From positions 1-64,000 of IMG/VR virus record IMGVR_UViG_3300022407_006250: a stretch of DNA of 64,000 bases. One strand, given 5' to 3'. This document shows positions 2,180-61,116 of this stretch, piece after piece. The notes beneath the pieces were generated by a model. That model was not told the origin of the DNA, ran no database searches, and was given only the letters and a program-made list of their open reading frames with translations. Position 1 is the stretch's first letter; every line of letters begins with the position of its first letter. This DNA is from a virus. The translations under genes were made by a program, and so were the position numbers.

Positions 2180-4399
2180 ATGAGTAATAATAAAATAGAA
2201 AAAATGATTGAAAGAGCAGTTGCCATTGCAAACGACAACAATCACGAGTATGTCACCCTAGAGCATGTTCTGCTTTCTATATTGCATGAAAAAGAAATAA
2301 ATGAACTTATTCTTTCAATTGGCGGCCAGCCTGCCAAAATTAAAACTGATGCAATTCAATTTTTGGGTGATCCTGCCCTAAGAAAACCCGATGCTTTAAA
2401 AGATGTTCCTGCAAAGCGCACACAAACTTTAAATAGAACGTTTCAGCGTGCTTTAACTCAACAAATTTTTAGTGGTCGTAATGAACTTACCAATGAGACA
2501 GTGCTGCTCAGTATGTTAAGTGAAGAAACCAGTCATGCATATTATTTTCTTACAAAAAATGGTGTAAGTAGAGAAAAAATTATTGCTCATTTGCGCAAGG
2601 CTGATGGAAAATCACCCCAAGGGGAAGATAGCCCACTTGATCTTTATGCAAGAAACCTAAACAACGATGCCACAGAAGGCACCATTGACCCTGTCATTGG
2701 ACGAGAAAAAGAAGTTGCTGACACAATTGAAATTCTTGCACGCCGTAAGAAAAACAACGTTATTTATGTTGGTGAGCCTGGTGTTGGTAAAACATGTTTG
2801 GCCGAAGGTCTAGCATTAAAGATTGTAAACAAGGAAGTGCCTAAAGCAATTCAAGACAAGGTTATTTACAGCTTAGATATGGGAGCATTGCTTGCAGGAA
2901 CAAAGTTCCGTGGAGACTTTGAGGAACGATTAAAGGGCATTCTTGATCAGGTCAAGAAACTTAAAAATTGCATCTTGTTCATTGACGAAATTCACATGAT
3001 CTTGGGTGCTGGTTCAACCACAGGCAGTCAAATGGATGCAGGTAACTTGCTAAAGCCCATGCTTGCCAAGGGAGAGTTGATGTGTGTTGGTGCAACCACA
3101 TACGATGAATTCCACGAACACTTTGAAAAAGACAAGGCACTGCTACGTCGTTTCCAAAAGTATGATATTAATCAGCCCTCAGCAGCAGAAACAAAACTTA
3201 TTTTGGCTGGCCTAACCAAGCACTATGAAAAGTTCCACGGTGTTGCATATGCTGAAGGTATGACAGATTTGTGTGTTGATCTAGCAGATCGATACTTAAA
3301 GTCTAAATTCTTCCCAGACAAGGCCATTGATATCATGGACTCGGCAGGTGCCAAAGCCAAACTCAATGAAGAGTTGCAAGTTACAGCAGATATAGTACTT
3401 CAACAAGCAGCTAAAATTGCACGTATTCCTGCACACACCATGGACATAAGGGAAAATGATTTGCTTGAAAATATTGCTCCAAGAATCAAAGACAAGGTGT
3501 ACGGGCAAGATGAAGCAATTGATAGGCTAGTAGAAGCAGTTTATCTTGCCAAGGCCGGCTTGCGTAATGCAACAAAACCAATTGGAAGTTTCTTGTTTAC
3601 TGGCCGAACAGGTACAGGTAAAACATATACCGCAAAGCAATTGGCAAAGCAGTTGGGTGTACACTTTGCTAGATTCGACATGAGCGAATACATGGAAAAG
3701 CACACTGTATCCAAGTTTATTGGTGCTCCTCCGGGCTATGTGGGTCACGGCGAGGGCAAGATGGGAGAAGGACAGCTCATTCAGGCAATTGATACACATC
3801 CCAACTGTGTTCTGTTGCTAGATGAAATTGAAAAGGCTCATCCGGATGTTATCACTGTGTTGCTACAATTAATGGATGATGCAAGATTGACTTCTAGCAA
3901 AGGTAAAACTGTTGATGCATCGAATACCATTATTATCATGTCGGCCAACTTGGGTGCTGCTGATTCTGAAAAATTAAAGATTGGTTTTGGAGATCAAGAT
4001 AATTCATCTGTGGTAGATAAAGAAATTAAAAAGTTCTTTAGCCCTGAATTTAGAAACAGAATTGATGCTATTGTCAAATTCAACAAGCTAACCATGAACG
4101 AAATGAGTCTAATTGTTAATGCTGAAATTGAAAAGACAGAAGTTATGTTGGCCCCTAAGAATATTATTATTAGAGTTACGCCAACAGCACGTGAATGGCT
4201 TGCAAACAAGGGATACGATCCAAAGATGGGTGCACGACCATTTGAGCGGTTGTTTGAAGAAAAAATTAAAAAGCCATTGGCTAAAGAAATTTTGTTTGGC
4301 AAACTAAAAGACGGTGGCCGGGCAGTTGTTAATTTGGACGAAGCTGGAGAAATCGTTATCTTTACAACCAGTTCAGTATCGGAAACAGTGCTAATATAA
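2180..4399 (+). CDS. clpA: ClpA-like Hsp100 AAA+ unfoldase
   Basis: Clp-N (HEYVTLEH), Walker A motifs GEPGVGKT and GRTGTGKT, LFIDEIH, RFDMSEY, GAPPGYVG, IGF ClpP-docking loop, GARP; no M-domain. Confidence 0.92.
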   Translation: MSNNKIEKMIERAVAIANDNNHEYVTLEHVLLSILHEKEINELILSIGGQPAKIKTDAIQFLGDPALRKPDALKDVPAKRTQTLNRTFQRALTQQIFSGRNELTNETVLLSMLSEETSHAYYFLTKNGVSREKIIAHLRKADGKSPQGEDSPLDLYARNLNNDATEGTIDPVIGREKEVADTIEILARRKKNNVIYVGEPGVGKTCLAEGLALKIVNKEVPKAIQDKVIYSLDMGALLAGTKFRGDFEERLKGILDQVKKLKNCILFIDEIHMILGAGSTTGSQMDAGNLLKPMLAKGELMCVGATTYDEFHEHFEKDKALLRRFQKYDINQPSAAETKLILAGLTKHYEKFHGVAYAEGMTDLCVDLADRYLKSKFFPDKAIDIMDSAGAKAKLNEELQVTADIVLQQAAKIARIPAHTMDIRENDLLENIAPRIKDKVYGQDEAIDRLVEAVYLAKAGLRNATKPIGSFLFTGRTGTGKTYTAKQLAKQLGVHFARFDMSEYMEKHTVSKFIGAPPGYVGHGEGKMGEGQLIQAIDTHPNCVLLLDEIEKAHPDVITVLLQLMDDARLTSSKGKTVDASNTIIIMSANLGAADSEKLKIGFGDQDNSSVVDKEIKKFFSPEFRNRIDAIVKFNKLTMNEMSLIVNAEIEKTEVMLAPKNIIIRVTPTAREWLANKGYDPKMGARPFERLFEEKIKKPLAKEILFGKLKDGGRAVVNLDEAGEIVIFTTSSVSETVLI

Positions 4400-19940: not shown

Positions 19941-22892
19941 GTGTACGTTGACGCACTCTTCCGTCGCGGTGGCGATTCAGAAACAATCAAAATTGTAGAA
20001 CGAGTAAATGGCGAGCGCGTCTATCGCGAATTTACACCCGACTATCACTTTTATATCAATGATGCTCGAGGCACAAGCAAATCTATCTATGGCGACTATG
20101 TAAAGAAAGTTGTACCAAAAAGTTTTGGAGAAAAGCAAAAACTAGTAAAATCTATTTCTAGTAATGTTAAAAAGTGGGAAACTGACATTGACCCTATATT
20201 TCGCTGCCTTGAGCAAAACTATCAACACGCAGATGCACCCACACTAAACATTGCATTTTTTGACATTGAAACCAGTTTTGATAAAGAGGCAGGCTGGTCG
20301 GAAGCATCTGAAGCTAATAATTATATCACGTCAATATCTGTACACCTGCAGTGGATTGATGAAATTATTTGTTTGGCAATACCGCCGGAAACACTTACAG
20401 AAAGCGAAGCACAGGAATTGGCCGATGAAGTTGGCAATGTTGTGCTTTTTAAATCCGAAGGTACAATGCTTGAAGCATTCATGGATGTGATTGAAGACGC
20501 TGATATTCTTAGTGGCTGGAACAGCGAAGCATATGATATTCCGTATACTGTTAATCGTATCAAGAAAATTCTAGGAAAACAAGAAGCAAGACGCATGTGC
20601 TTGTGGGATCAGGAACCCAAAGTTCGAGAATTTGAACGCGGCGGTAAAACACAGCCCACATATGACTTAATTGGCAGGGTGCATGTTGATTATCTTCAAC
20701 TGTATAAAAAATATAACTATGAAGAACGACACAGTTATGCTCTGAACGCCATTGCTGAAATTGAACTAGGTGAAAACAAAATTCAGTATGCCGGTACACT
20801 TGATGAACTTTACAACGACGATTTTAAAAAATTCTTAGAGTATAACATTCAGGACACTCGACTGCTTGACCGTCTTGATAAAAAATTGCAATTTATCGAC
20901 TTGGCAAATTCTATTGCACATTCAAGTTGTGTGTTAATTCAGACAACAATGGGTGCTGTTGCAGTTACAGATCAAAATGTGTTGATGGAAGCACATAACC
21001 GAAATATGGTTTGCCCAGATAAGAAGCGCAATAAGGACGAAGATGCCAGCCGCGCAGCAGGTGGGTGGGTTGCAACACCCAGGAAAGGATTTCACAGATG
21101 GATTGCCAGCACTGACATGAAGTCACTGTATCCATCTGTGATCAGGACACTTAATATGAGTCCTGAAACAATTGTGGGACAAATTCGACTAGACAGAACT
21201 AATCAGGCAATTGCTGACTGGGAGGCAAAAGGTGGAAAATGTACTTTTGCATCTTGGTGGAATGATAGATTTAATGTACTAGAGATGGAAGATTTTTATA
21301 ACGAAGATATTGGTAACAAACTAATATTAGATATGGAAAATGGGGAACAATATGAACTTACCGGAAAAGAACTTAAAGAATTAATTTTTGATAGTAATCA
21401 GCCATGGTGTATTAGTGCAAATGGCACAATCTTTAAAACTGACATCGATGGTGTAATTCCGGGACTGTTAACTCGTTGGTACAGCGAACGTAAAACTTTG
21501 CAAAAAATCATGACTAATTATCAGGACATAGCAGATAATTCCAAAATTGAGGGTGTTAAAATACCCGAAGAATTATTTACAAATGAAGATATTAGTGATA
21601 CAGACACAAAAGCTAATCCTTATTCAGAATCAGAGTCTTATGATCCTAAAAAATTAAAAAAGCTTGTTACTAAAGGGCTGAAGGAAGATGTGGTTCAATA
21701 TATGAATCAACACAATCTAGAAGTTAAAGATGGCAAGGCCATATATCGGGACCAGTATGATCTAAAAAGAATTGTTGGGTTCTGGGATAAGCGTCAGTTA
21801 GTTAAGAAGATTAATCTAAACTCTGCATATGGTGCGTTGCTAAATGCAGGTAGTCGATTTTTTGATCAAAGGTTAGGCCAGTCAACTACATTAACGGGCA
21901 GAACAATTACCAAGCACATGGCTGCCAAGACCAATGAGATGATAACCGGCGAATATGACCACTACGGTAAGTCTATTGTATACGGGGATACCGATTCTTG
22001 TTTTTTCTCTGCTTACCCAATTATTAAGAAAGAAATTGAAAGAAATGAAATTGTATGGACCAAGGAAAGTATTGTAGAATTGTACAATGATTTAGCCAAA
22101 GCAGTTTCTAATACATTTCCGGACTTTTTATTAAACAAACTAAATGTGCCAGTTAAGAGATCAACGGGAATTATTGCAAGCTCAAGAGAAACAGTTTCCG
22201 AAACTGGTATCTGGATGGTTAAAAAGCGTTATGCTTGTTTGATGTATGACAAGGATGGTATTAGACTTGATGTTAATGGCAAACCCGGTAAAGTCAAGGC
22301 AATGGGCCTGGACTTAAAGCGAGCAGATACACCCAAGTTTGTACAAGAGTTTTTATCTGAAATTTTGCTTGACACATTACGAGACAAAGGCGAAAACACA
22401 GTTATTGAAAAAATTAGAACTTTTAAAGAAAAGTTCGAAGATATGAAGCCGTGGCAGCAAGGCACTCCACGAGCAGTTAATAAATTATCCCATTATAGGG
22501 ATAAATTAGAGGATGCTGGAATTAAAAAGATGAAAGGCATTGAGGTCGGTAATCTTCACGTACCCGGGCATGTTACAGCAAGTTTGGCGTGGAACAGATT
22601 AAAAGAAATAAATCAAGATCAACATGCAATGCGTATTATTGATGGACAAAAAATTATTGTGTGTAAACTTAAACCCAATAATGATTACAATATTGATAAC
22701 ATAGCATTTCCGGTAGATATTGCACACTTGCCCGATTGGTTTACTGCATTGCCGTTTGATAGCGATGCTATGAGCGCCGGTATTGTAGACAAGAAAGTAG
22801 AGAATTTACTTTCAGTTCTATCCTGGGACTTATCTAGAACAAATAAAGATCATAAGCATTTGGAAACTTTATTTGATTTTAGTGGCATGTAA
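19941..22892 (+). CDS. family B DNA polymerase
   Basis: ExoI FFDIET, ExoII GWNS..YD, ExoIII YNIQD; motif A D..SLYPS, motif B K...NSAYG, motif C YGDTDS, KKRYA. Confidence 0.97.
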   Translation: MYVDALFRRGGDSETIKIVERVNGERVYREFTPDYHFYINDARGTSKSIYGDYVKKVVPKSFGEKQKLVKSISSNVKKWETDIDPIFRCLEQNYQHADAPTLNIAFFDIETSFDKEAGWSEASEANNYITSISVHLQWIDEIICLAIPPETLTESEAQELADEVGNVVLFKSEGTMLEAFMDVIEDADILSGWNSEAYDIPYTVNRIKKILGKQEARRMCLWDQEPKVREFERGGKTQPTYDLIGRVHVDYLQLYKKYNYEERHSYALNAIAEIELGENKIQYAGTLDELYNDDFKKFLEYNIQDTRLLDRLDKKLQFIDLANSIAHSSCVLIQTTMGAVAVTDQNVLMEAHNRNMVCPDKKRNKDEDASRAAGGWVATPRKGFHRWIASTDMKSLYPSVIRTLNMSPETIVGQIRLDRTNQAIADWEAKGGKCTFASWWNDRFNVLEMEDFYNEDIGNKLILDMENGEQYELTGKELKELIFDSNQPWCISANGTIFKTDIDGVIPGLLTRWYSERKTLQKIMTNYQDIADNSKIEGVKIPEELFTNEDISDTDTKANPYSESESYDPKKLKKLVTKGLKEDVVQYMNQHNLEVKDGKAIYRDQYDLKRIVGFWDKRQLVKKINLNSAYGALLNAGSRFFDQRLGQSTTLTGRTITKHMAAKTNEMITGEYDHYGKSIVYGDTDSCFFSAYPIIKKEIERNEIVWTKESIVELYNDLAKAVSNTFPDFLLNKLNVPVKRSTGIIASSRETVSETGIWMVKKRYACLMYDKDGIRLDVNGKPGKVKAMGLDLKRADTPKFVQEFLSEILLDTLRDKGENTVIEKIRTFKEKFEDMKPWQQGTPRAVNKLSHYRDKLEDAGIKKMKGIEVGNLHVPGHVTASLAWNRLKEINQDQHAMRIIDGQKIIVCKLKPNNDYNIDNIAFPVDIAHLPDWFTALPFDSDAMSAGIVDKKVENLLSVLSWDLSRTNKDHKHLETLFDFSGM

Positions 22893-54134: not shown

Positions 54135-54355
54135 ACGAACATATTCGAGCAGCATTTGAAGAAATTACTGCTCCCAGTTTTGGTCACGAGGTAAGTTACC
54201 CTAGAAAAAAGAATGGTAAATACGAAGACGACACAATTGAAGATCATTGGCAAACCTTTCAGGAAGGCTGGGAGGCCGGCGTTGAGTATTTAAAGAATAA
54301 ACACAATCCAAAATACAGTGATATTATCAGCGATGGCGGATTTGATCCAAGGTGA
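54131..54355 (+). CDS. hypothetical protein
   Basis: R..FE...G.Y......W..FQ.G. Confidence 0.6.
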   Translation: MNEHIRAAFEEITAPSFGHEVSYPRKKNGKYEDDTIEDHWQTFQEGWEAGVEYLKNKHNPKYSDIISDGGFDPR

Positions 54356-54372
54356 AATGCCGAAGAAAAACT

Positions 54373-55167
54373 ATGACAAAAATTTTAAATGATAAAGACT
54401 GGAAGAGTCTACAACAACAATTTCAATCAAGTAAACCATTCAATCATGTAGTAATCGATGATTTTTTTACACATGATACACTAAATGCACTAATTACTGA
54501 ATTTCCTGCATACAACTCCGATGTTTGGAACGCCTATTACAACAATGCAATTGAAAATAAAAAAGCCTGTAACAGCTGGGATAAGTTTCCGGATACCACT
54601 TACTCTGTTTTTTATTACCTTTGCAGTGATGTGTTCAAAGACATTGTTTCAGATATTACCGGTAATAATGAAATACAAGCAGATTTTGGATTGCACGGAG
54701 GTGGGTGGCATGCCCATGCTACCAACGGTAAACTAAACATACATCTTGATTACAGCATACACCCCAAACTACAACTTGAGCGGCATTACAATCTTATTGT
54801 GTATCTTACACCAGATTGGCTTCCCGAATGGAATGGTGGTTTGGAATTGTGGAGTCACGATGAAGCGACAGGCTGTGCAAAAGATCAAGAAGTTTTGATT
54901 GAAAATAAATTTAATCGTGCTGTGCTATTTGATACGACACAAAATTCCTGGCATGGCCTTCCGGGAAATCTTTCTTGTCCACAGGGTATTGAGAGACATA
55001 GTTTAGCAGTTTATTATGTTACTGAGCCTGCTCCCAACGCTGACCAGCGTGGTAAGGCATTGTTTGTACCGTACGGAGAACAGGCCAATGATCCTGCGGT
55101 GTTAGAATTAATTCAAAAACGTAGCCAGATATCAACTGCCAAACAAGTATATAGAGATCAAACATGA
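54373..55167 (+). CDS. 2OG-Fe(II) oxygenase
   Basis: PF.HVVIDDF, GGG.H, L.IHLD (HxD), GGLELW, FNRAVLF, SWHG, R.S.A.YY. Confidence 0.88.
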   Translation: MTKILNDKDWKSLQQQFQSSKPFNHVVIDDFFTHDTLNALITEFPAYNSDVWNAYYNNAIENKKACNSWDKFPDTTYSVFYYLCSDVFKDIVSDITGNNEIQADFGLHGGGWHAHATNGKLNIHLDYSIHPKLQLERHYNLIVYLTPDWLPEWNGGLELWSHDEATGCAKDQEVLIENKFNRAVLFDTTQNSWHGLPGNLSCPQGIERHSLAVYYVTEPAPNADQRGKALFVPYGEQANDPAVLELIQKRSQISTAKQVYRDQT

Positions 55168-56233: not shown

Positions 56234-56590
56234 ATGACAGATGATTTAGACGAAGATGGACATCCTACCGACGCTGCACTAGCAAAAATTGAATCTTTCT
56301 CATATAAGGATGATTATAATGACCTAATGCAATATATTAAGAGTATGTGGTGGATGCCTTCATTTGGATGGAGGCAGAGTGAGCCTGTTGTAGATTTTTA
56401 TACGCCTCTCAGTGGCAAAATGTCTAAAAGAACCAAAACTCGATATACTCTTTCTACCGGTGGATGGAGCGGTAACGAAAGTATCATGCATAGTTTACAG
56501 CAAAATAAATTGTTTTGGTCCACGTGTTGGGTAAGCAGTTGCCGCGGCGGACATTACGAATTAGAAATTGTAAATGTAATAATTATGTAA
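56234..56590 (+). CDS. hypothetical phage protein
   Basis: STGGWSGNE.I...L.....W...W....RGGHY. Confidence 0.7.
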   Translation: MTDDLDEDGHPTDAALAKIESFSYKDDYNDLMQYIKSMWWMPSFGWRQSEPVVDFYTPLSGKMSKRTKTRYTLSTGGWSGNESIMHSLQQNKLFWSTCWVSSCRGGHYELEIVNVIIM

Positions 56591-56591
56591 T
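56574..56591 (+). promoter_or_regulatory. Pho-box-like direct repeat
   Basis: ATGTAAT-aatt-ATGTAAT with 11-bp period, 34 nt upstream of the plcP-like start. Confidence 0.5.
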
Positions 56592-56625
56592 TTTTAAAAA
56601 ACCATAGAACGGTAAATACTAGAGC

Positions 56626-57411
56626 ATGAAAGCAACTAATAATTATCGTAGTATATTTATTTCAGATTGTCACCTAGGCTCGCGTGATTGCAAGGCCGAA
56701 TCACTTATTAATTTTCTTAAAAATAATTCCTGTGATACACTTTATTTGGTAGGTGATATCATAGATGGCTGGAAAATTACACAGAACAAGTGGAAGTGGA
56801 AACAGAGTCATACCAATGTAATTCAACGAATACTTGGTCATGCTAAAAAAGGTACCAGAGTGGTATATGTGGCAGGAAATCATGATGAATTTTTACGTCC
56901 AATGATACCTTACAGTGTTACTTTTGGATTGATAGAAATTCATAATCAAATTGAACATATGGGTGCCGATGGTAGACGATATCTTGTTACACACGGAGAT
57001 TTATTTGATGGCATTACACGAATAGCACCCTGGATCAGTTTCCTCGGGGATAAGGCCTATGATTTTGTACTGTCACTCAATAATAAGTTCAATTGGGTAC
57101 GTCGTCGATTTGGATTTGGCTACTGGTCTCTAAGTAGATATCTCAAAGGTCGTATAAAAAAAGCTGTAGATTTTATATTTCAATTTGAAAAAAATCTAGC
57201 CGGCTATTGTAAGAAACGCGGTTTTGATGGTGTGATTTGTGGTCATATACACTCGGCCGAAATAAAACTAATAGACGGTGTTACCTACATGAATGATGGT
57301 GACTGGGTGGAAAGTTGCACAGCCCTTGTGGAGCATTACAACGGGCATTGGGAAATAGTAACCTGGACAATCGAAGAAGATGAAAAAAAAGATATTAATA
57401 ATAACAGATAA
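56626..57411 (+). CDS. plcP: PlcP-like phospholipase C (LpxH-like metallophosphoesterase family)
   Basis: RSIFISD.HLG, YLVGDIIDGW, GNHDE, HGDLFD, GYWSLS.YLK, CGHIH, YMNDGDWVES.TAL.E. Confidence 0.75.
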   Translation: MKATNNYRSIFISDCHLGSRDCKAESLINFLKNNSCDTLYLVGDIIDGWKITQNKWKWKQSHTNVIQRILGHAKKGTRVVYVAGNHDEFLRPMIPYSVTFGLIEIHNQIEHMGADGRRYLVTHGDLFDGITRIAPWISFLGDKAYDFVLSLNNKFNWVRRRFGFGYWSLSRYLKGRIKKAVDFIFQFEKNLAGYCKKRGFDGVICGHIHSAEIKLIDGVTYMNDGDWVESCTALVEHYNGHWEIVTWTIEEDEKKDINNNR

Positions 57412-58375
57412 TCTTAAAAATCAAATTAATGGTGTCGTCACAACGTTCAAAAATATCGAGATACACGCAAGTGATGACGGGTACGATATTGTTTATATTG
57501 ATCCCGGGCAGTTCCCTTATATTAATGCTCCTGGTTATCCTGAAGTTAAACTCAGTTGGCCACGCGGCATTGGCAAGAAGATTGAAGCGGTGGGGGCTGA
57601 TCACATACATATTGCTACGGAGGGGCCTATTGGCCTTGCTGCGCGTATTTGGCTAGACCGTCGCGGTCTTGAGTATAATACTTCTTATCATACCAAGTTT
57701 CCTGAGTTCTTAAAAAAGATTTATAAGGTGCCCATGTGGGCAACTTACTGGTATGTGAGATGGTTCCACAAGCATAGTGGTCGTGTGCTAACCACCACAG
57801 ACACAATGGTTGACGATCTTAAAGCGCATGGCTTTAAAGGAGATATTATTCCGTGGACTCGCGGTGTAGATCGAGACATATTTCAAAGTGACCTACGTGG
57901 AACCACTGTGGCTGGTCGCCCCATATTGCTCAGTGTAGGTCGAATTAGTAAAGAAAAAGGGCTCGATGACTTTTGTAATTTGAACTATCCCGGAGCCACC
58001 AAAATTGTAGTTGGAGATGGACCGTACTTGAATGATTTAAAAAAGCGATATCCAGATATTGTTTTTACTGGAGCTAAGACGGGTACAAATCTAGCAAGAT
58101 ACTTTGCACAAGCAGACGTATTTGTTTTTACCAGCCGAAACGATACATTCGGTGTAGTAATTATTGAAGCACTGGCAGTGGGAACACCGGTAGCTGCATA
58201 TCCTGTTCCCGGTCCGTTAGATATTATTACCCAAGGCGTAACCGGATATCTAGATCAGGACTTGATCCAAGCTATCAATCAATGTTTGTTGTTGGACAGA
58301 CAACAAGTAGAAGAACATAGCCAGGAATGGAGTTGGGGCAACTGCTGGAATATCTTTAAAGAAAATCTTATATAA
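57380..58375 (+). CDS. GT4 glycosyltransferase (Agt-like glycolipid synthase)
   Basis: ITD....QINGVVTT, IHIATEGPIGL, YHTKFPE, RGVD, VGRI..EK, VGDGP, DTFG.V..EA.A.G.PVAAYPVPGP. Confidence 0.8.
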   Translation: MKKKILIITDNLKNQINGVVTTFKNIEIHASDDGYDIVYIDPGQFPYINAPGYPEVKLSWPRGIGKKIEAVGADHIHIATEGPIGLAARIWLDRRGLEYNTSYHTKFPEFLKKIYKVPMWATYWYVRWFHKHSGRVLTTTDTMVDDLKAHGFKGDIIPWTRGVDRDIFQSDLRGTTVAGRPILLSVGRISKEKGLDDFCNLNYPGATKIVVGDGPYLNDLKKRYPDIVFTGAKTGTNLARYFAQADVFVFTSRNDTFGVVIIEALAVGTPVAAYPVPGPLDIITQGVTGYLDQDLIQAINQCLLLDRQQVEEHSQEWSWGNCWNIFKENLI

Positions 58376-58447
58376 TATTTTGCATTAATCACTTGACTCT
58401 TGATTACGGCTCTAATATAATTTATTCTATAAGTATTGGAGCAGTCA

Positions 58448-58930
58448 ATGATTAACTGTATTGTTGCAGTAGAAAAAAATCAAGGCATAGGATTTGAGGG
58501 TTCCATGCCTTGGCCTCATCTCAAACACGACATGAAATGGTTCAAGCAATTGTCCATGGGCCATATTATCATTATGGGCTCAACTACATGGCTTGGATTG
58601 GGGCGATCACTGCCCGGGCGTGTTAACATTGTGCTTTCCAAAAATCACAGTTGTGCAGGTGCAGATCATGTATTTTTTGATACAGAGACTGCACTTGATT
58701 TTTGTGAAATTGAATATCCAGATCTAGAAATTTTTATTATTGGCGGGCAAGCAATTTACGAACAGTACATGGGCATAATTGACACATTCTATGTTACAGA
58801 AATTGATGCCGATTACGAATGTGATAAATTTTTCAATCTAGATTATGTTCGTAAAAATTGTCGCAAGACTGTGGTGCATGAAACACACATGGACACAGTC
58901 AACTACAAGATGGTCGAATATTCCTACTAA
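58448..58930 (+). CDS. folA: dihydrofolate reductase
   Basis: IVA....GIG....MPW....DM.WF, IMG..TW, LPGR.NIVLS, IIGG..IY, CD.FF. Confidence 0.92.
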   Translation: MINCIVAVEKNQGIGFEGSMPWPHLKHDMKWFKQLSMGHIIIMGSTTWLGLGRSLPGRVNIVLSKNHSCAGADHVFFDTETALDFCEIEYPDLEIFIIGGQAIYEQYMGIIDTFYVTEIDADYECDKFFNLDYVRKNCRKTVVHETHMDTVNYKMVEYSY

Positions 58931-59446: not shown

Positions 59447-59644
59447 ATGGATGATGAACTAAAAATTGCGGTTCGAGAACTTTTTGAAAAGTACCTAAAC
59501 CATGCCGAAGAATCCGATTCCGGTCGCTTGTACAAGCCGGTTCAAATTTCTTGTTCAAGAGCCTTGATGACTGAACCACTAAATATTCTAATAGAAAAAA
59601 TTAGAAAACTATCAGGTGCTGCACATGCACCACGAACATTTTAG
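59447..59644 (+). CDS. hypothetical protein
   Basis: GGAG RBS after sigma70 promoter at 59399-59427; EESDSG..Y.P..ISC.R. Confidence 0.6.
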   Translation: MDDELKIAVRELFEKYLNHAEESDSGRLYKPVQISCSRALMTEPLNILIEKIRKLSGAAHAPRTF

Positions 59645-59651
59645 GTGTAAA

Positions 59652-60170
59652 ATGAACATTGTGGAACGTGCTAAAGAATTTGCCATGGCTGCACATAATT
59701 CAGCCCAGCAGGTAAGAAAGTATACCAACGAACCATATTGGGTGCATCCGGCTGAGGTCGCTGCCATTGTGGCCACTGTGCCACATACAGATGAGATGTT
59801 GGCTGCTGCGTGGCTTCACGATACAGTGGAAGATACAGCCATTACTAACCAAGACATTGCTCGAGAGTTTGGCGAAGAAGTTGCTAAACTTGTGGGGTGG
59901 CTTACTGATGTTTCTCAACCCGGGGACGGTAATAGATCTCACAGAAAACAATTGGATCGGGAACATATCGCAAATGCACCTGCTGAGGTGCACACAATTA
60001 AATTGGCCGACTTGATTAGCAATACCAAAAGTATTGTGGAACATGATCCCGAGTTTGCAAAAGTTTACCTTGAAGAAAAACGATTGCTACTTGAGGTCCT
60101 GGTCAAAGGCAACTTGTCGCTGCGTATCTCTGCAAGAAGTCAAATTAGTGAACGGGAATTTTTATTCTAA
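59652..60170 (+). CDS. HD-domain small alarmone hydrolase (SpoT/Mesh1-like)
   Basis: A..AH..Q.RK....PY..HP.EVA, AA.LHDTVEDT, FG..VA.LV..LTD, KLAD...N. Confidence 0.82.
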   Translation: MNIVERAKEFAMAAHNSAQQVRKYTNEPYWVHPAEVAAIVATVPHTDEMLAAAWLHDTVEDTAITNQDIAREFGEEVAKLVGWLTDVSQPGDGNRSHRKQLDREHIANAPAEVHTIKLADLISNTKSIVEHDPEFAKVYLEEKRLLLEVLVKGNLSLRISARSQISEREFLF

Positions 60171-60613
60171 TGGATGACCACGATATTGCAATTGTTTGTA
60201 ATCGCATACGGACACCCGATGGCACAGTCATCATAAGTCGCCACGGTCACGACTATGTACGCTATCAAGATGCAAATGGATTTGAATATTCTGTAGACGG
60301 TGGCACAAATTATCTTCGTCGTGGATGGTCGCCCGGTGCACCACCTGCAGAAGAAATTAGCGTATACTCAAATAATATCCACGAAGAAATTAGGGGAGCA
60401 TTTGCCTGGGGCACTCGAGGTCGTGACGGTGATCAACCACTTGCTTGGATAACACTTGATCAAATGAGCACCGAACATATCACAGCCGTTTTGGAAACTC
60501 AGAATCAAATCAGCAAACAGGTTCGTAAAATTTTTGAGGATGAAATCAAATTCCGAAAACTAATTCAAGTTAATAAACAAATTCAAAAAATTTATAAAAA
60601 TACAACAGAATGA
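60170..60613 (+). CDS. hypothetical phage protein
   Basis: TPDGT...S.H.HDY, VDGG..YLRR, WGT.G.DG. Confidence 0.7.
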   Translation: MDDHDIAIVCNRIRTPDGTVIISRHGHDYVRYQDANGFEYSVDGGTNYLRRGWSPGAPPAEEISVYSNNIHEEIRGAFAWGTRGRDGDQPLAWITLDQMSTEHITAVLETQNQISKQVRKIFEDEIKFRKLIQVNKQIQKIYKNTTE

Positions 60614-61116
60614 AAAAACTTGTTATCGATGATGCGCTGTTTCGATCCTTGATGTCAGACATTTGCAGGCAAATCTCGTTGTCTGGCTGGCAGCCCGATT
60701 ATGTGGTTGGTATTACCCGAGGCGGCCTGTTGGCTGCTACAATGATTAGCCATTACTTTGAAATTCCCATGCATACACTAAATGTAAGTATGCGAGATGG
60801 GGTTGGAAGAGAAAGTAATGTTCAAATGGCCAATGAAGCATTTGGTCATAATTGTCTAGCTAAAAATATTCTCATCGTAGATGACATCAACGACTCCGGT
60901 GCTACTCTAAACTGGATCATGCATGACTGGCACAGTAACTGTCATCTAGGAGAAAGCCAATGGGAAAATATTTGGGGCAACAATGTTCGTTTTGCTGTGG
61001 TTGTTGATAACCTAGCCAGCAGGTGCAGCATGGGAATGAACTTTGTGGGTATAGAAATTAACAAGGATGAGGAAAATGTTTGGGTTCATTTTCCTTACGA
61101 AGAATGGTGGAAATAA
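60610..61116 (+). CDS. type I purine phosphoribosyltransferase (Gpt-like)
   Basis: VGITRGGL, ILIVDDINDSGAT PRPP loop, WV.FP.E. Confidence 0.85.
   Translation: MKKLVIDDALFRSLMSDICRQISLSGWQPDYVVGITRGGLLAATMISHYFEIPMHTLNVSMRDGVGRESNVQMANEAFGHNCLAKNILIVDDINDSGATLNWIMHDWHSNCHLGESQWENIWGNNVRFAVVVDNLASRCSMGMNFVGIEINKDEENVWVHFPYEEWWK

Follow-up and report, generated by a model that had tools for sequence, protein, structure and literature searches.

The window analysed, 64,000 nt of the viral record IMGVR_UViG_3300022407_006250, is part of a 100,785-bp contig with a completeness of 28%, which gives an estimated genome size of about 360 kb. It derives from a freshwater phage of very large genome, of which it represents a part. 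Two genes lie in tandem on its plus strand: gene A (plcP-like; 56626..57411, 261 aa), assigned to the Mn-type metallophosphoesterases of the PlcP (phospholipase C) family, and gene B (agt-like; 57380..58375, 331 aa), a candidate GT4 diacylglycerol glycosyltransferase. Both open reading frames were confirmed as the overlapping phosphoesterase-then-GT4 pair described in the first-pass annotation, with 32 nt shared by the 3' end of A and the start of B. Upstream, on the same strand, the sequence contains a Pho-box-like direct repeat read directly as ATGTAAT-AATT-ATGTAAT (56574..56591), made of two 7-mers with an 11-bp period, and a GTAAATA element (56612..56618, with TAAATA at 56613-56618) located 7 nt 5' of the ATG of gene A; the same two elements had been reported in this layout before. 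Between them, 11-13 nt past the repeat, CATAGA / TAGAAC (56603..56610, plus strand) may act as a weak -10 element. The repeat overlaps the final codons of a 118-aa open reading frame (56234..56590) upstream of A.

A megablast search of the locus against isolated phages gave no match, and relatives of gene A, used as the single query, were found on at least 510 IMG/VR contigs. The A-then-B order was adjacent in 30 of 80 viral loci and in 34 of 79 bacterial ones, and this linkage is kept in both bacteria and phages, often with overlap of the stop and start of the two genes. Synonymous divergence of A and B from their relatives is saturated, and dN/dS was about 0.05 for gene A, whose family is under strong purifying selection, and about 0.16 for gene B. 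Each gene falls within a phage-only clade (tree support 99 and 100). PHROG matches carried only the generic labels "metallo-phosphoesterase" and "glycosyltransferase".

Assignment of gene A to the PlcP family

Gene A matches the Pfam Metallophos domain (6e-11), and among 46 family members none of the residues D14, H16, D44, D47, N85, H86, H123, H207 and H209 varies; by sequence, all of its metal-binding motifs are intact. The PlcP family signature YMNDGDWVESCTALVEH is present. Identity was 58% to the orthologue of P. aeruginosa PlcP (PA3219; E 2e-96) and 47% to the sole S. meliloti homologue, the PlcP orthologue there (E 2e-85). Both references were taken from PLSDB records with chromosomal DNA and are orthologues from strains other than those of the assayed proteins. 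For comparison, characterised PlcPs are 46-47% identical among themselves (PMC8528852), and the published operational cut-off for the family is a BLASTP E < 1e-40 to MED193_17359. The P. aeruginosa match is encoded directly 5' of a glycosyltransferase gene, with an adenylate cyclase gene alongside, a neighbourhood that identifies it as the PA3219-PA3218 arrangement described by Jones et al. 2021 (PMC8528852). In addition, Hirschia maritima DSM 19733, listed as a PlcP-bearing strain in Table S2 of Sebastian et al. 2016, has a single LpxH-like gene, to which gene A is 60% identical. As in the type 2 arrangement, in which plcP is linked to a gene for a non-phosphorus lipid (agt), a GT4 gene overlaps the 3' end of A. 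In the AF2 model of the protein (pLDDT 82), the core is LpxH-like and residues 124-197 form a helical cap.

In an alternative reading, gene A would be the lipid A enzyme LpxH and, together with the glycosyltransferase, would modify lipopolysaccharide, for example in serotype conversion. Relatives of A carry the label "UDP-2,3-diacylglucosamine pyrophosphatase LpxH" in the sources, and the nearest solved fold is indeed LpxH, which shares the calcineurin-like core and, at the corresponding insertion point, a helical cap that binds lipid (Foldseek E ~3e-11, TM 0.52-0.60). Sequence identity to LpxH is, however, just about 20%, and the NCBIfam models for the enzyme scored far below their cut-offs (NF003743, 41.4 against 134; TIGR01854, 35.1 against 190). 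Gene A and all 165 relatives have the motif GNHDE, whereas the LpxH proteins of E. coli and Ruthturnera have GNRD with the phosphate-binding Arg. Moreover, in one Ruthturnera genome a true LpxH (249 bits) coexists with a separate paralogue, an A homologue adjoining a GT4 gene. In the tree, the phage A clade and the bacterial clade with the orthologues from P. aeruginosa and S. meliloti are sisters, and the branch between A and LpxH has a length above 5 with support of 100. Model scores, motif, tree and co-occurrence with a true LpxH thus largely refute this identity, which we regard as exceedingly improbable, and the phylogeny bears out the earlier proposal of a PlcP-type rather than an LpxH-type enzyme. 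By sequence, gene A belongs to the PlcP family and is predicted to encode a phospholipase C; the reaction that defines such enzymes is the Mn-dependent hydrolysis of PE, PG or PC to diacylglycerol.

The substrate of gene A could also be a phosphoester other than a lipid, for instance a nucleotide or a signalling molecule, the link with the GT4 gene being coincidental. The calcineurin-like fold serves many substrates, and nuclease-type phosphoesterases are among the PHROG matches of A. This is nevertheless very unlikely given the identity of 47-58% to orthologues of characterised PlcPs, the possession of YMNDGDWVESCTALVEH and the A-then-B linkage maintained across bacteria and phages.

The LpxH label is also found on PlcP-family genes of isolated phages. 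Mosig_00120 of Pelagibacter phage Mosig EXVC030M and a homologue in Synechococcus phage S-SRM01, 50% and 36% identical to A, respectively, are so labelled; both are without an adjacent GT4 gene and outside the freshwater phage clade, and the Mosig homologue is divergent from a putative pstS. No mention of Mosig_00120 was found in the papers on Mosig that were consulted. The virus surveys consulted place "lpxH" under lipopolysaccharide synthesis (PMC9611531, PMC10653327), and if those entries correspond to the family of gene A, phosphate-related viral functions have been undercounted.

Gene B as an Agt-type glycosyltransferase

Gene B contains the GT-B GT4 domains Glycos_transf_1 (Pfam, 3.6e-21) and Glyco_transf_4 (4.2e-14), and the top GT4 match in the PDB (E 2e-10) covers the C-terminal half alone. 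It is 41% identical over 318 residues to the P. aeruginosa Agt1 orthologue (E 3e-84) and 37-46% identical to plcP-adjacent GT4s, including those of Kordiimonas; members of the Agt clade share 41-58% identity, while other GT4 enzymes fall below 25%.

The residues essential for the SAR11 enzyme GTcp were established by Wei et al. 2021 (PMC8231724), and its hallmarks are a His104-Asp256 dyad, the sequence motifs GRVAXEKN plus FPSXTDTFG, as well as a Gly-rich motif. Gene B has H104, R188, K193, D255-T256-F257-G258, E263, G18, G82 and G85. The corresponding motifs read GRISKEKG (with R188 and K193) and FTSRNDTFG (with D255-G258), with one deviation, FTS in place of the family FPS. With the identity to Agt1 and the GTcp key residues retained, the suggestion of an Agt-like GT4 was upheld: by sequence, gene B is an Agt-type GT4 for which the synthesis of glycosyl-diacylglycerol (MGDG or GADG) from diacylglycerol and a UDP-sugar is predicted. 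MGDG and/or GADG were the products obtained with PA3218 and PB7211_960.

The upstream repeat and promoter elements

Pho boxes have CTGTCAT-like 7-mers with an 11-bp period (PMC8528852). Such a box stands some 10 bp upstream of the -10 element and substitutes for a -35. Each 7-mer of the repeat matches CTGTCAT at 5 of 7 positions, with A instead of C at position 5. The window contains a single copy of the core TGTNAT-N5-TGTNAT against 0.65 expected, and 40 of 100 shuffles had one or more; by window count alone the repeat is not significant. Its weight comes instead from being the sole site in the contig, from its rarity in random windows and from the position kept in relatives. The pattern TGT[AC]A[CT]-N5-TGT[AC]A[CT] has a single site in the whole 100,785 bp, which is this repeat, and when 100-nt windows were drawn at random from the DNA of related phages, just 0.16% had an exact site. 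With up to one mismatch allowed, 29 of the 52 distinct plcP genes from phages have the motif upstream, compared with 0.4% of random windows. The motif recurs upstream of phage pstS genes, and the 11-bp repeat is conserved among homologous phage loci, a check suggested in the first-pass annotation. The shared promoter design offers a means of finding further phosphate-regulated phage genes. The spacer within the repeat differs among relatives while the 7-mers are kept, which is the pattern expected of a protein-binding site.

The distance from the repeat to TAAATA is 21 nt in the window, one helical turn farther upstream than the canonical 10-11 nt. Two spacing classes were seen in relatives, 11 nt (13 loci) and 21-22 nt (16 loci). 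For 20 relatives with the 21-22 nt layout, the hexamer located 11 nt past the box is mostly AATACT, GATACT, TATGCT or AAAACT; in the window, CATAGA occupies this place, lacks the final T and is a weak -10. The repeat of the proposed Pho-box-like site stands, but its spacing from TAAATA departs from the canonical one. No canonical sigma-70 promoter or -35 element was found upstream of gene A. The next gene, encoding DHFR, is preceded by an 11/12 sigma-70 match (TTGACT-17-TATAAT) at 58393-58421.

In 36 of 52 distinct phage loci, the plcP ATG has a TAAATA no more than 12 nt away, and many further genes on the contig have (G/A)ATAAATA 20-34 nt upstream. The GTAAATA element proposed as a phage promoter is present, and it may serve as a late promoter, as the -10 of a Pho promoter or as both. 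The repeat could be a phage-regulator site or a promoter relic instead of a PhoB site, with the pair expressed constitutively or late from TAAATA. The proximity of TAAATA to the ATG and its likeness to the contig motif favour such an origin, as do the 21-nt spacing and weak -10, which are non-canonical. In cyanophage S-PM2d, furthermore, predicted Pho boxes proved an unreliable guide to PhoB binding or induction (PMC10976474). Against this, 71 of the 76 pstS promoters from Comamonadaceae contain the repeat, followed after about 11 nt by a TA[AG]A[GT]T hexamer; phage PstS proteins are 71-81% identical to Comamonadaceae PstS, the closest found; and the 7-mers persist while the inner spacer varies. 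On balance, we consider a role independent of PhoB unlikely.

Phosphate economy and the proposed function of the pair

Phosphorus is often limiting for lake and ocean bacteria, and the DNA of a large phage needs much of it. The explanation favoured here, with somewhat better than even confidence, is that the pair is a phage copy of the PlcP-Agt lipid-renovation operon, switched by PhoB and supplying the phage with phosphorus from the host membrane. Gene A would remove the phosphorylated head groups of host glycerophospholipids (PE, PG), and the remaining diacylglycerol would receive the sugar of a UDP-sugar through gene B, whose translation is coupled to that of A. The product would be a phosphorus-free glycolipid, so that the membrane would stay intact, while the freed phospho-head groups would enter the phosphate pool for phage DNA synthesis. 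Since the pair stands behind a Pho-box-type repeat, host PhoB would switch it on in a phosphate-starved host, as for cyanophage pstS. The enzyme activities of A and B, the binding by PhoB and any gain for the phage are inferred. The lipid-renovation reading given in the first-pass annotation came through each computational test that was run (the PlcP-versus-LpxH tree, the identity to Agt and the conservation of the repeat), and on this sequence basis the phage probably draws phosphorus from the host membrane.

The phage pair resembles the bacterial PlcP-Agt operons (P. aeruginosa PA3219-PA3218, S. meliloti SMc00171, Phaeobacter MED193_17359 and SAR11 HTCC7211 PB7211_983/PB7211_960) in both families, in gene order, in translational coupling and in the Pho-box-type repeat 5' of the genes. 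Unlike them, it is phage-borne, falls in phage-only clades, and has an AT-rich variant of the box (TGTAAT) as well as TAAATA 7 nt from the ATG with no clear ribosome-binding site. The cyanophage pstS and phoA genes under host PhoBR control (S-PM2d, PMC10976474) are similar in being host-derived phosphate-economy genes with a putative PhoB site, and phages related to the present one carry pstS behind the motif shared with plcP. However, lipid renovation instead of phosphate uptake is predicted for the pair, and its box is of the proteobacterial CTGTCAT type, whereas the cyanophage box is of the cyanobacterial PyTTAAPyPy type. No description of a phage-encoded PlcP-Agt pair was found in the literature searched, in agreement with the earlier remark that it had not been characterised in a phage. 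Known phage phosphate genes (pstS, phoA) act on uptake; if the proposal is true, phage PlcP-Agt would be a different route, in which the phosphorus of the host membrane is recycled and the membrane is kept intact.

The 100,785-bp contig, which represents 28% of the genome, yielded neither pstS nor a true phoH, and no phosphatase was identified near the gene pair. PlcP releases phospho-head groups and not free phosphate, so that a phosphatase would also be needed. The likely host group, Comamonadaceae/Limnohabitans, already has its own plcP-agt, and the phage copy therefore adds no new capability. No box was found directly upstream of the Limnohabitans plcP, since another gene precedes plcP in the operon.

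With plcP-agt already present in the likely host group, additional supply may not be the whole reason for the phage to retain the pair. The enzymes might work as proposed with the benefit lying in a changed cell envelope and not in phosphorus supply: altered receptors or membranes could give phage exclusion, protection from grazers or antimicrobial peptides, or membrane stability until lysis. In P. aeruginosa, lipid renovation alters the membrane protein make-up, and an effect on phage receptors has been discussed (PMC9804370); glycolipids also change antibiotic sensitivity (PMC8528852). The control motif is, however, common to phage pstS, a phosphate-uptake gene, which ties the pair to the phosphate economy, and the locus is without anything suggesting exclusion functions. 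An envelope benefit in place of phosphorus supply thus appears improbable, and the supply of membrane phosphorus is retained as the preferred function.

A broader version of the phosphorus-supply proposal is put forward only tentatively, and we hold it to be somewhat less probable than not: large freshwater phages of Comamonadaceae hosts (e.g., Limnohabitans) would have a Pho regulon of their own, a plcP promoter read in two ways and the host membrane as phosphorus store. Read in this manner, the regulon would comprise pstS, plcP-agt and a gene for a 215-residue coiled-coil protein, each behind a promoter of the form box-11 nt-TAAATA, its design taken over from host pstS. At plcP, the regulon promoter would be fused to a late-type TAAATA located 4-7 nt from the ATG, so that two systems could transcribe the gene, host PhoB with sigma-70 and the late machinery of the phage, and the mRNA might be leaderless. 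As for the size of the store, a cell of E. coli size has about 2e7 phospholipids and a 360-kb genome contains 7.2e5 P, which corresponds, in a rough calculation, to phosphorus for some tens of genomes.

Assignment of the two enzymes

The pair consists of a metallophosphoesterase gene of 261 aa (gene A, 56626-57411) and a GT4 glycosyltransferase gene of 331 aa (gene B, 57380-58375), which share 32 nt. Gene A had been annotated at first pass as an LpxH/PlcP-type metallophosphoesterase, with PlcP to be told apart from LpxH. It scored only 41 and 35 bits against the NCBIfam LpxH equivalogs, far below their cut-offs of 134 and 190, and its matches to LpxH chains in the PDB were weak (E about 1e-3). 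The sole homologue in the 3.7-Mb record of S. meliloti, the species in which PlcP was first discovered, is 47% identical (E 2e-85). Identity rises to 58% (E 2e-96) with the P. aeruginosa orthologue, which has a glycosyltransferase gene directly downstream and an adenylate cyclase gene alongside. The lipid-renovation pathway of P. aeruginosa is formed by PA3219 (PlcP) and the glycosyltransferase immediately downstream, PA3218 (Agt1) (Jones et al. 2021, PMC8528852). Since characterised PlcPs share 46-47% pairwise identity (PMC8528852), gene A falls well inside the range of the family. Hirschia maritima DSM 19733, a strain listed as PlcP-bearing (Sebastian et al. 2016), has one LpxH-like gene, whose product shares 60% identity with A.

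All metal-binding motifs are intact in gene A, the PlcP family signature YMNDGDWVESCTALVEH is present, and GNHDE is found where LpxH shows GNRD. In a single Ruthturnera genome, a true LpxH (249 bits) occurs alongside a homologue of A (45 bits) whose neighbour is a GT4, indicating that the two are distinct paralogues. An LpxH identity was rejected on the sub-cut-off scores, the GNHDE motif and this separate paralogue, and membership of gene A in the PlcP family is well supported by sequence comparison. The nearest solved fold to its AlphaFold model (pLDDT 82) is LpxH, with a modelled helical cap (residues 124-197) at the site of the LpxH lipid-binding cap, which would fit a lipid substrate.

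For gene B, the proposed Agt-like identity is supported by comparison with the GTcp/Agt clade, defined by a His104-Asp256 dyad, GRVAXEKN, FPSXTDTFG, a Gly-rich motif and essential residues (Wei et al. 2021, PMC8231724). Its counterparts are H104, GRISKEKG, FTSRNDTFG, E263, G82 and G85. Identity to the P. aeruginosa Agt1 orthologue is 41% (E 3e-84), which matches the published identity of Agt1 to the MED193 Agt (PMC8528852), and it is 37-46% to GT4s downstream of plcP in Alphaproteobacteria. Assignment as an Agt-type GT4 is well supported at this level.

Some PLSDB reference records deserve comment. The S. meliloti record is 3.72 Mb long and labelled pSymB. The P. aeruginosa 'plasmids' of 96-167 kb carry an apparently chromosomal plcP-like gene with the downstream GT gene and the adjacent adenylate cyclase gene, and the 'plasmid' records CP090106.1 (L294) and NZ_CP137508.1 (L295) appear to carry chromosomal DNA.

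The upstream repeat and its promoter layout

Upstream of gene A, the annotated repeat with an 11-bp period, ATGTAAT-AATT-ATGTAAT, was confirmed at 56574-56591. Its count in the window is unremarkable by itself, and it is the sole site in the contig matching TGT[AC]A[CT]-N5-TGT[AC]A[CT]. When 52 distinct phage plcP upstream regions were compared, 18 had an exact site, against 0.16% of random 100-nt windows from the same loci; with up to one mismatch allowed, the number was 29 (0.38% of random windows). The 7-mers are kept in phage relatives while the spacer inside the repeat varies. That the repeat is real and conserved is well supported.

The few further sites in related loci lie 5' of phage pstS (PF12849; loci L094, L108, L127 and L139) and of an unknown coiled-coil ORF of 215 aa. 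The PstS proteins of Comamonadaceae such as Limnohabitans, Polaromonas and Acidovorax share 71-81% identity with phage PstS, and 71 of the 76 upstream regions of those bacterial pstS genes contain the same repeat as TGTCAY-N5-TGTCAY, about 11 nt 5' of TA[AG]A[GT]T in the examples listed. Because this design is shared, the phage arrangement (TGTAAY, 11 nt, TAAATA) is a putative AT-rich copy of a host Pho promoter. The coiled-coil ORF (about 215 aa, no Pfam match; L090:5189-5833, L117:7532-8173 and L144:7701-8144 in related phages) shares the box-11 nt-TAAATA promoter of phage pstS and plcP, and could make a third phage gene regulated by phosphate.

Only a few spacings separate the box from TAAATA: 11 nt (13 loci) and 21-22 nt (16 loci). 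In the 21-nt class, to which the window belongs, a -10-like AATACT or GATACT stands 11 nt past the box in most relatives, where the window has only CATAGA. Upstream of plcP in one relative (L126) the order is box-11 nt-TGAATA-5 nt-TAAATA, which looks like a duplicated -10 region and may represent a step between the two classes.

The GTAAATA element read at first pass as a phage-type promoter is present (56612-56618); its TAAATA may be a late promoter, the -10 of the Pho promoter, or both. In 36 of the 52 distinct phage loci (56613-56628 in the window; relatives L084-L163), a gap of 4-7 nt separates TAAATA from the plcP start codon, and no clear ribosome-binding site is seen, suggesting that the plcP mRNA leader is very short or absent. 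Elsewhere in the contig, (G/A)ATAAATA stands 20-34 nt 5' of genes. Under the box-TAAATA promoter that it shares with plcP, phage pstS keeps an ordinary leader of 25-35 nt that includes AGGA.

Phosphate scavenging under PhoB control, as originally proposed, is the most likely reading of the locus, and we infer it with moderate confidence; predicted Pho boxes of cyanophage S-PM2d were unreliable predictors of PhoB binding (PMC10976474).

Ancestry, spread and copies in a possible host group

In a tree of 84-89 sequences with LpxH as root, 34 viral homologues and one 4.5-kb MAG contig group together in a single clade (SH-aLRT 99), with the window's copy as the earliest branch. Bacterial PlcPs, including those of P. 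aeruginosa, S. meliloti, Hirschia and Limnohabitans, are its sister (support 84). A single clade (support 100) also unites the 19 viral GT4s, and within it the window's copy again branches early; this repeated pattern fits inheritance of plcP and agt as a unit. Synonymous sites are saturated between the window and its relatives, with dN/dS near 0.05 for A and 0.16 for B; both are long-standing phage genes under constraint.

Relatives of A are encoded by at least 510 IMG/VR contigs; the best 80 are 77-83% identical to it, and a GT4 adjoins plcP in 30 of these 80. Among isolated phages, homologues were found only in Pelagibacter phage Mosig (50%), where the gene is divergently oriented from a putative pstS, and Synechococcus phage S-SRM01 (36%). 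Phage-type plcP also occurs on short contigs binned in bacterial MAGs (L004, L165, L167): a 4.5-kb Gammaproteobacteria contig with a gene 78% identical to A, a Rickettsiales MAG with one 93% identical to that of Mosig, and a Crocinitomicaceae MAG with plcP behind a phage-style box-TAAATA promoter. These are probably phage DNA in bins.

Each of five Limnohabitans genomes encodes a PlcP (52-53% identity to A), with an adjacent agt at four of the five loci (38-41% identical to B). If this group is the host, the phage pair duplicates a host function and adds none.

The literature search found no report of phage-encoded plcP or of lipid renovation as a viral auxiliary function, in line with the earlier statement that the pair was uncharacterised in phages, and the Mosig papers do not mention its plcP homologue. 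Viral surveys file 'lpxH' (K03269) under lipopolysaccharide synthesis (PMC9611531, PMC10653327), and some of these entries may belong to the present gene family.

The carrying phage and the surrounding genes

The window covers the first 64 kb of an IMG/VR contig of 100,785 bp, rated 28% complete by CheckV, which puts the whole genome at about 360 kb. The best matches to its family-B DNA polymerase (19941-22892), at 41-43% identity, come from Sinorhizobium phage Phosso (469 kb) and Agrobacterium phage Atu_ph07 (490 kb); Rak2-like phages (345-385 kb) come next. The contig is therefore a piece of a jumbo phage genome.

Neighbours of the pair include a 2OG-Fe(II) oxygenase gene (54352-55167) and two unknown ORFs; the plcP homologue of Mosig is likewise adjoined by a 2OG-Fe(II) oxygenase gene. 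A near-consensus sigma-70 promoter (TTGACT-17-TATAAT, 11/12 match, 58393-58421) lies between the GT4 stop and the DHFR gene (58436-58930), which, being directly preceded by it, likely forms a separate early transcription unit. Just downstream are an HD_4-domain protein (59616-60170), whose HD family also occurs in RelA/SpoT-type hydrolases, and a phosphoribosyltransferase (60610-61116). The phage also encodes a Lon-like ATP-dependent protease of 739 aa at 2180-4399 (phrog_4871, E 4.5e-244).
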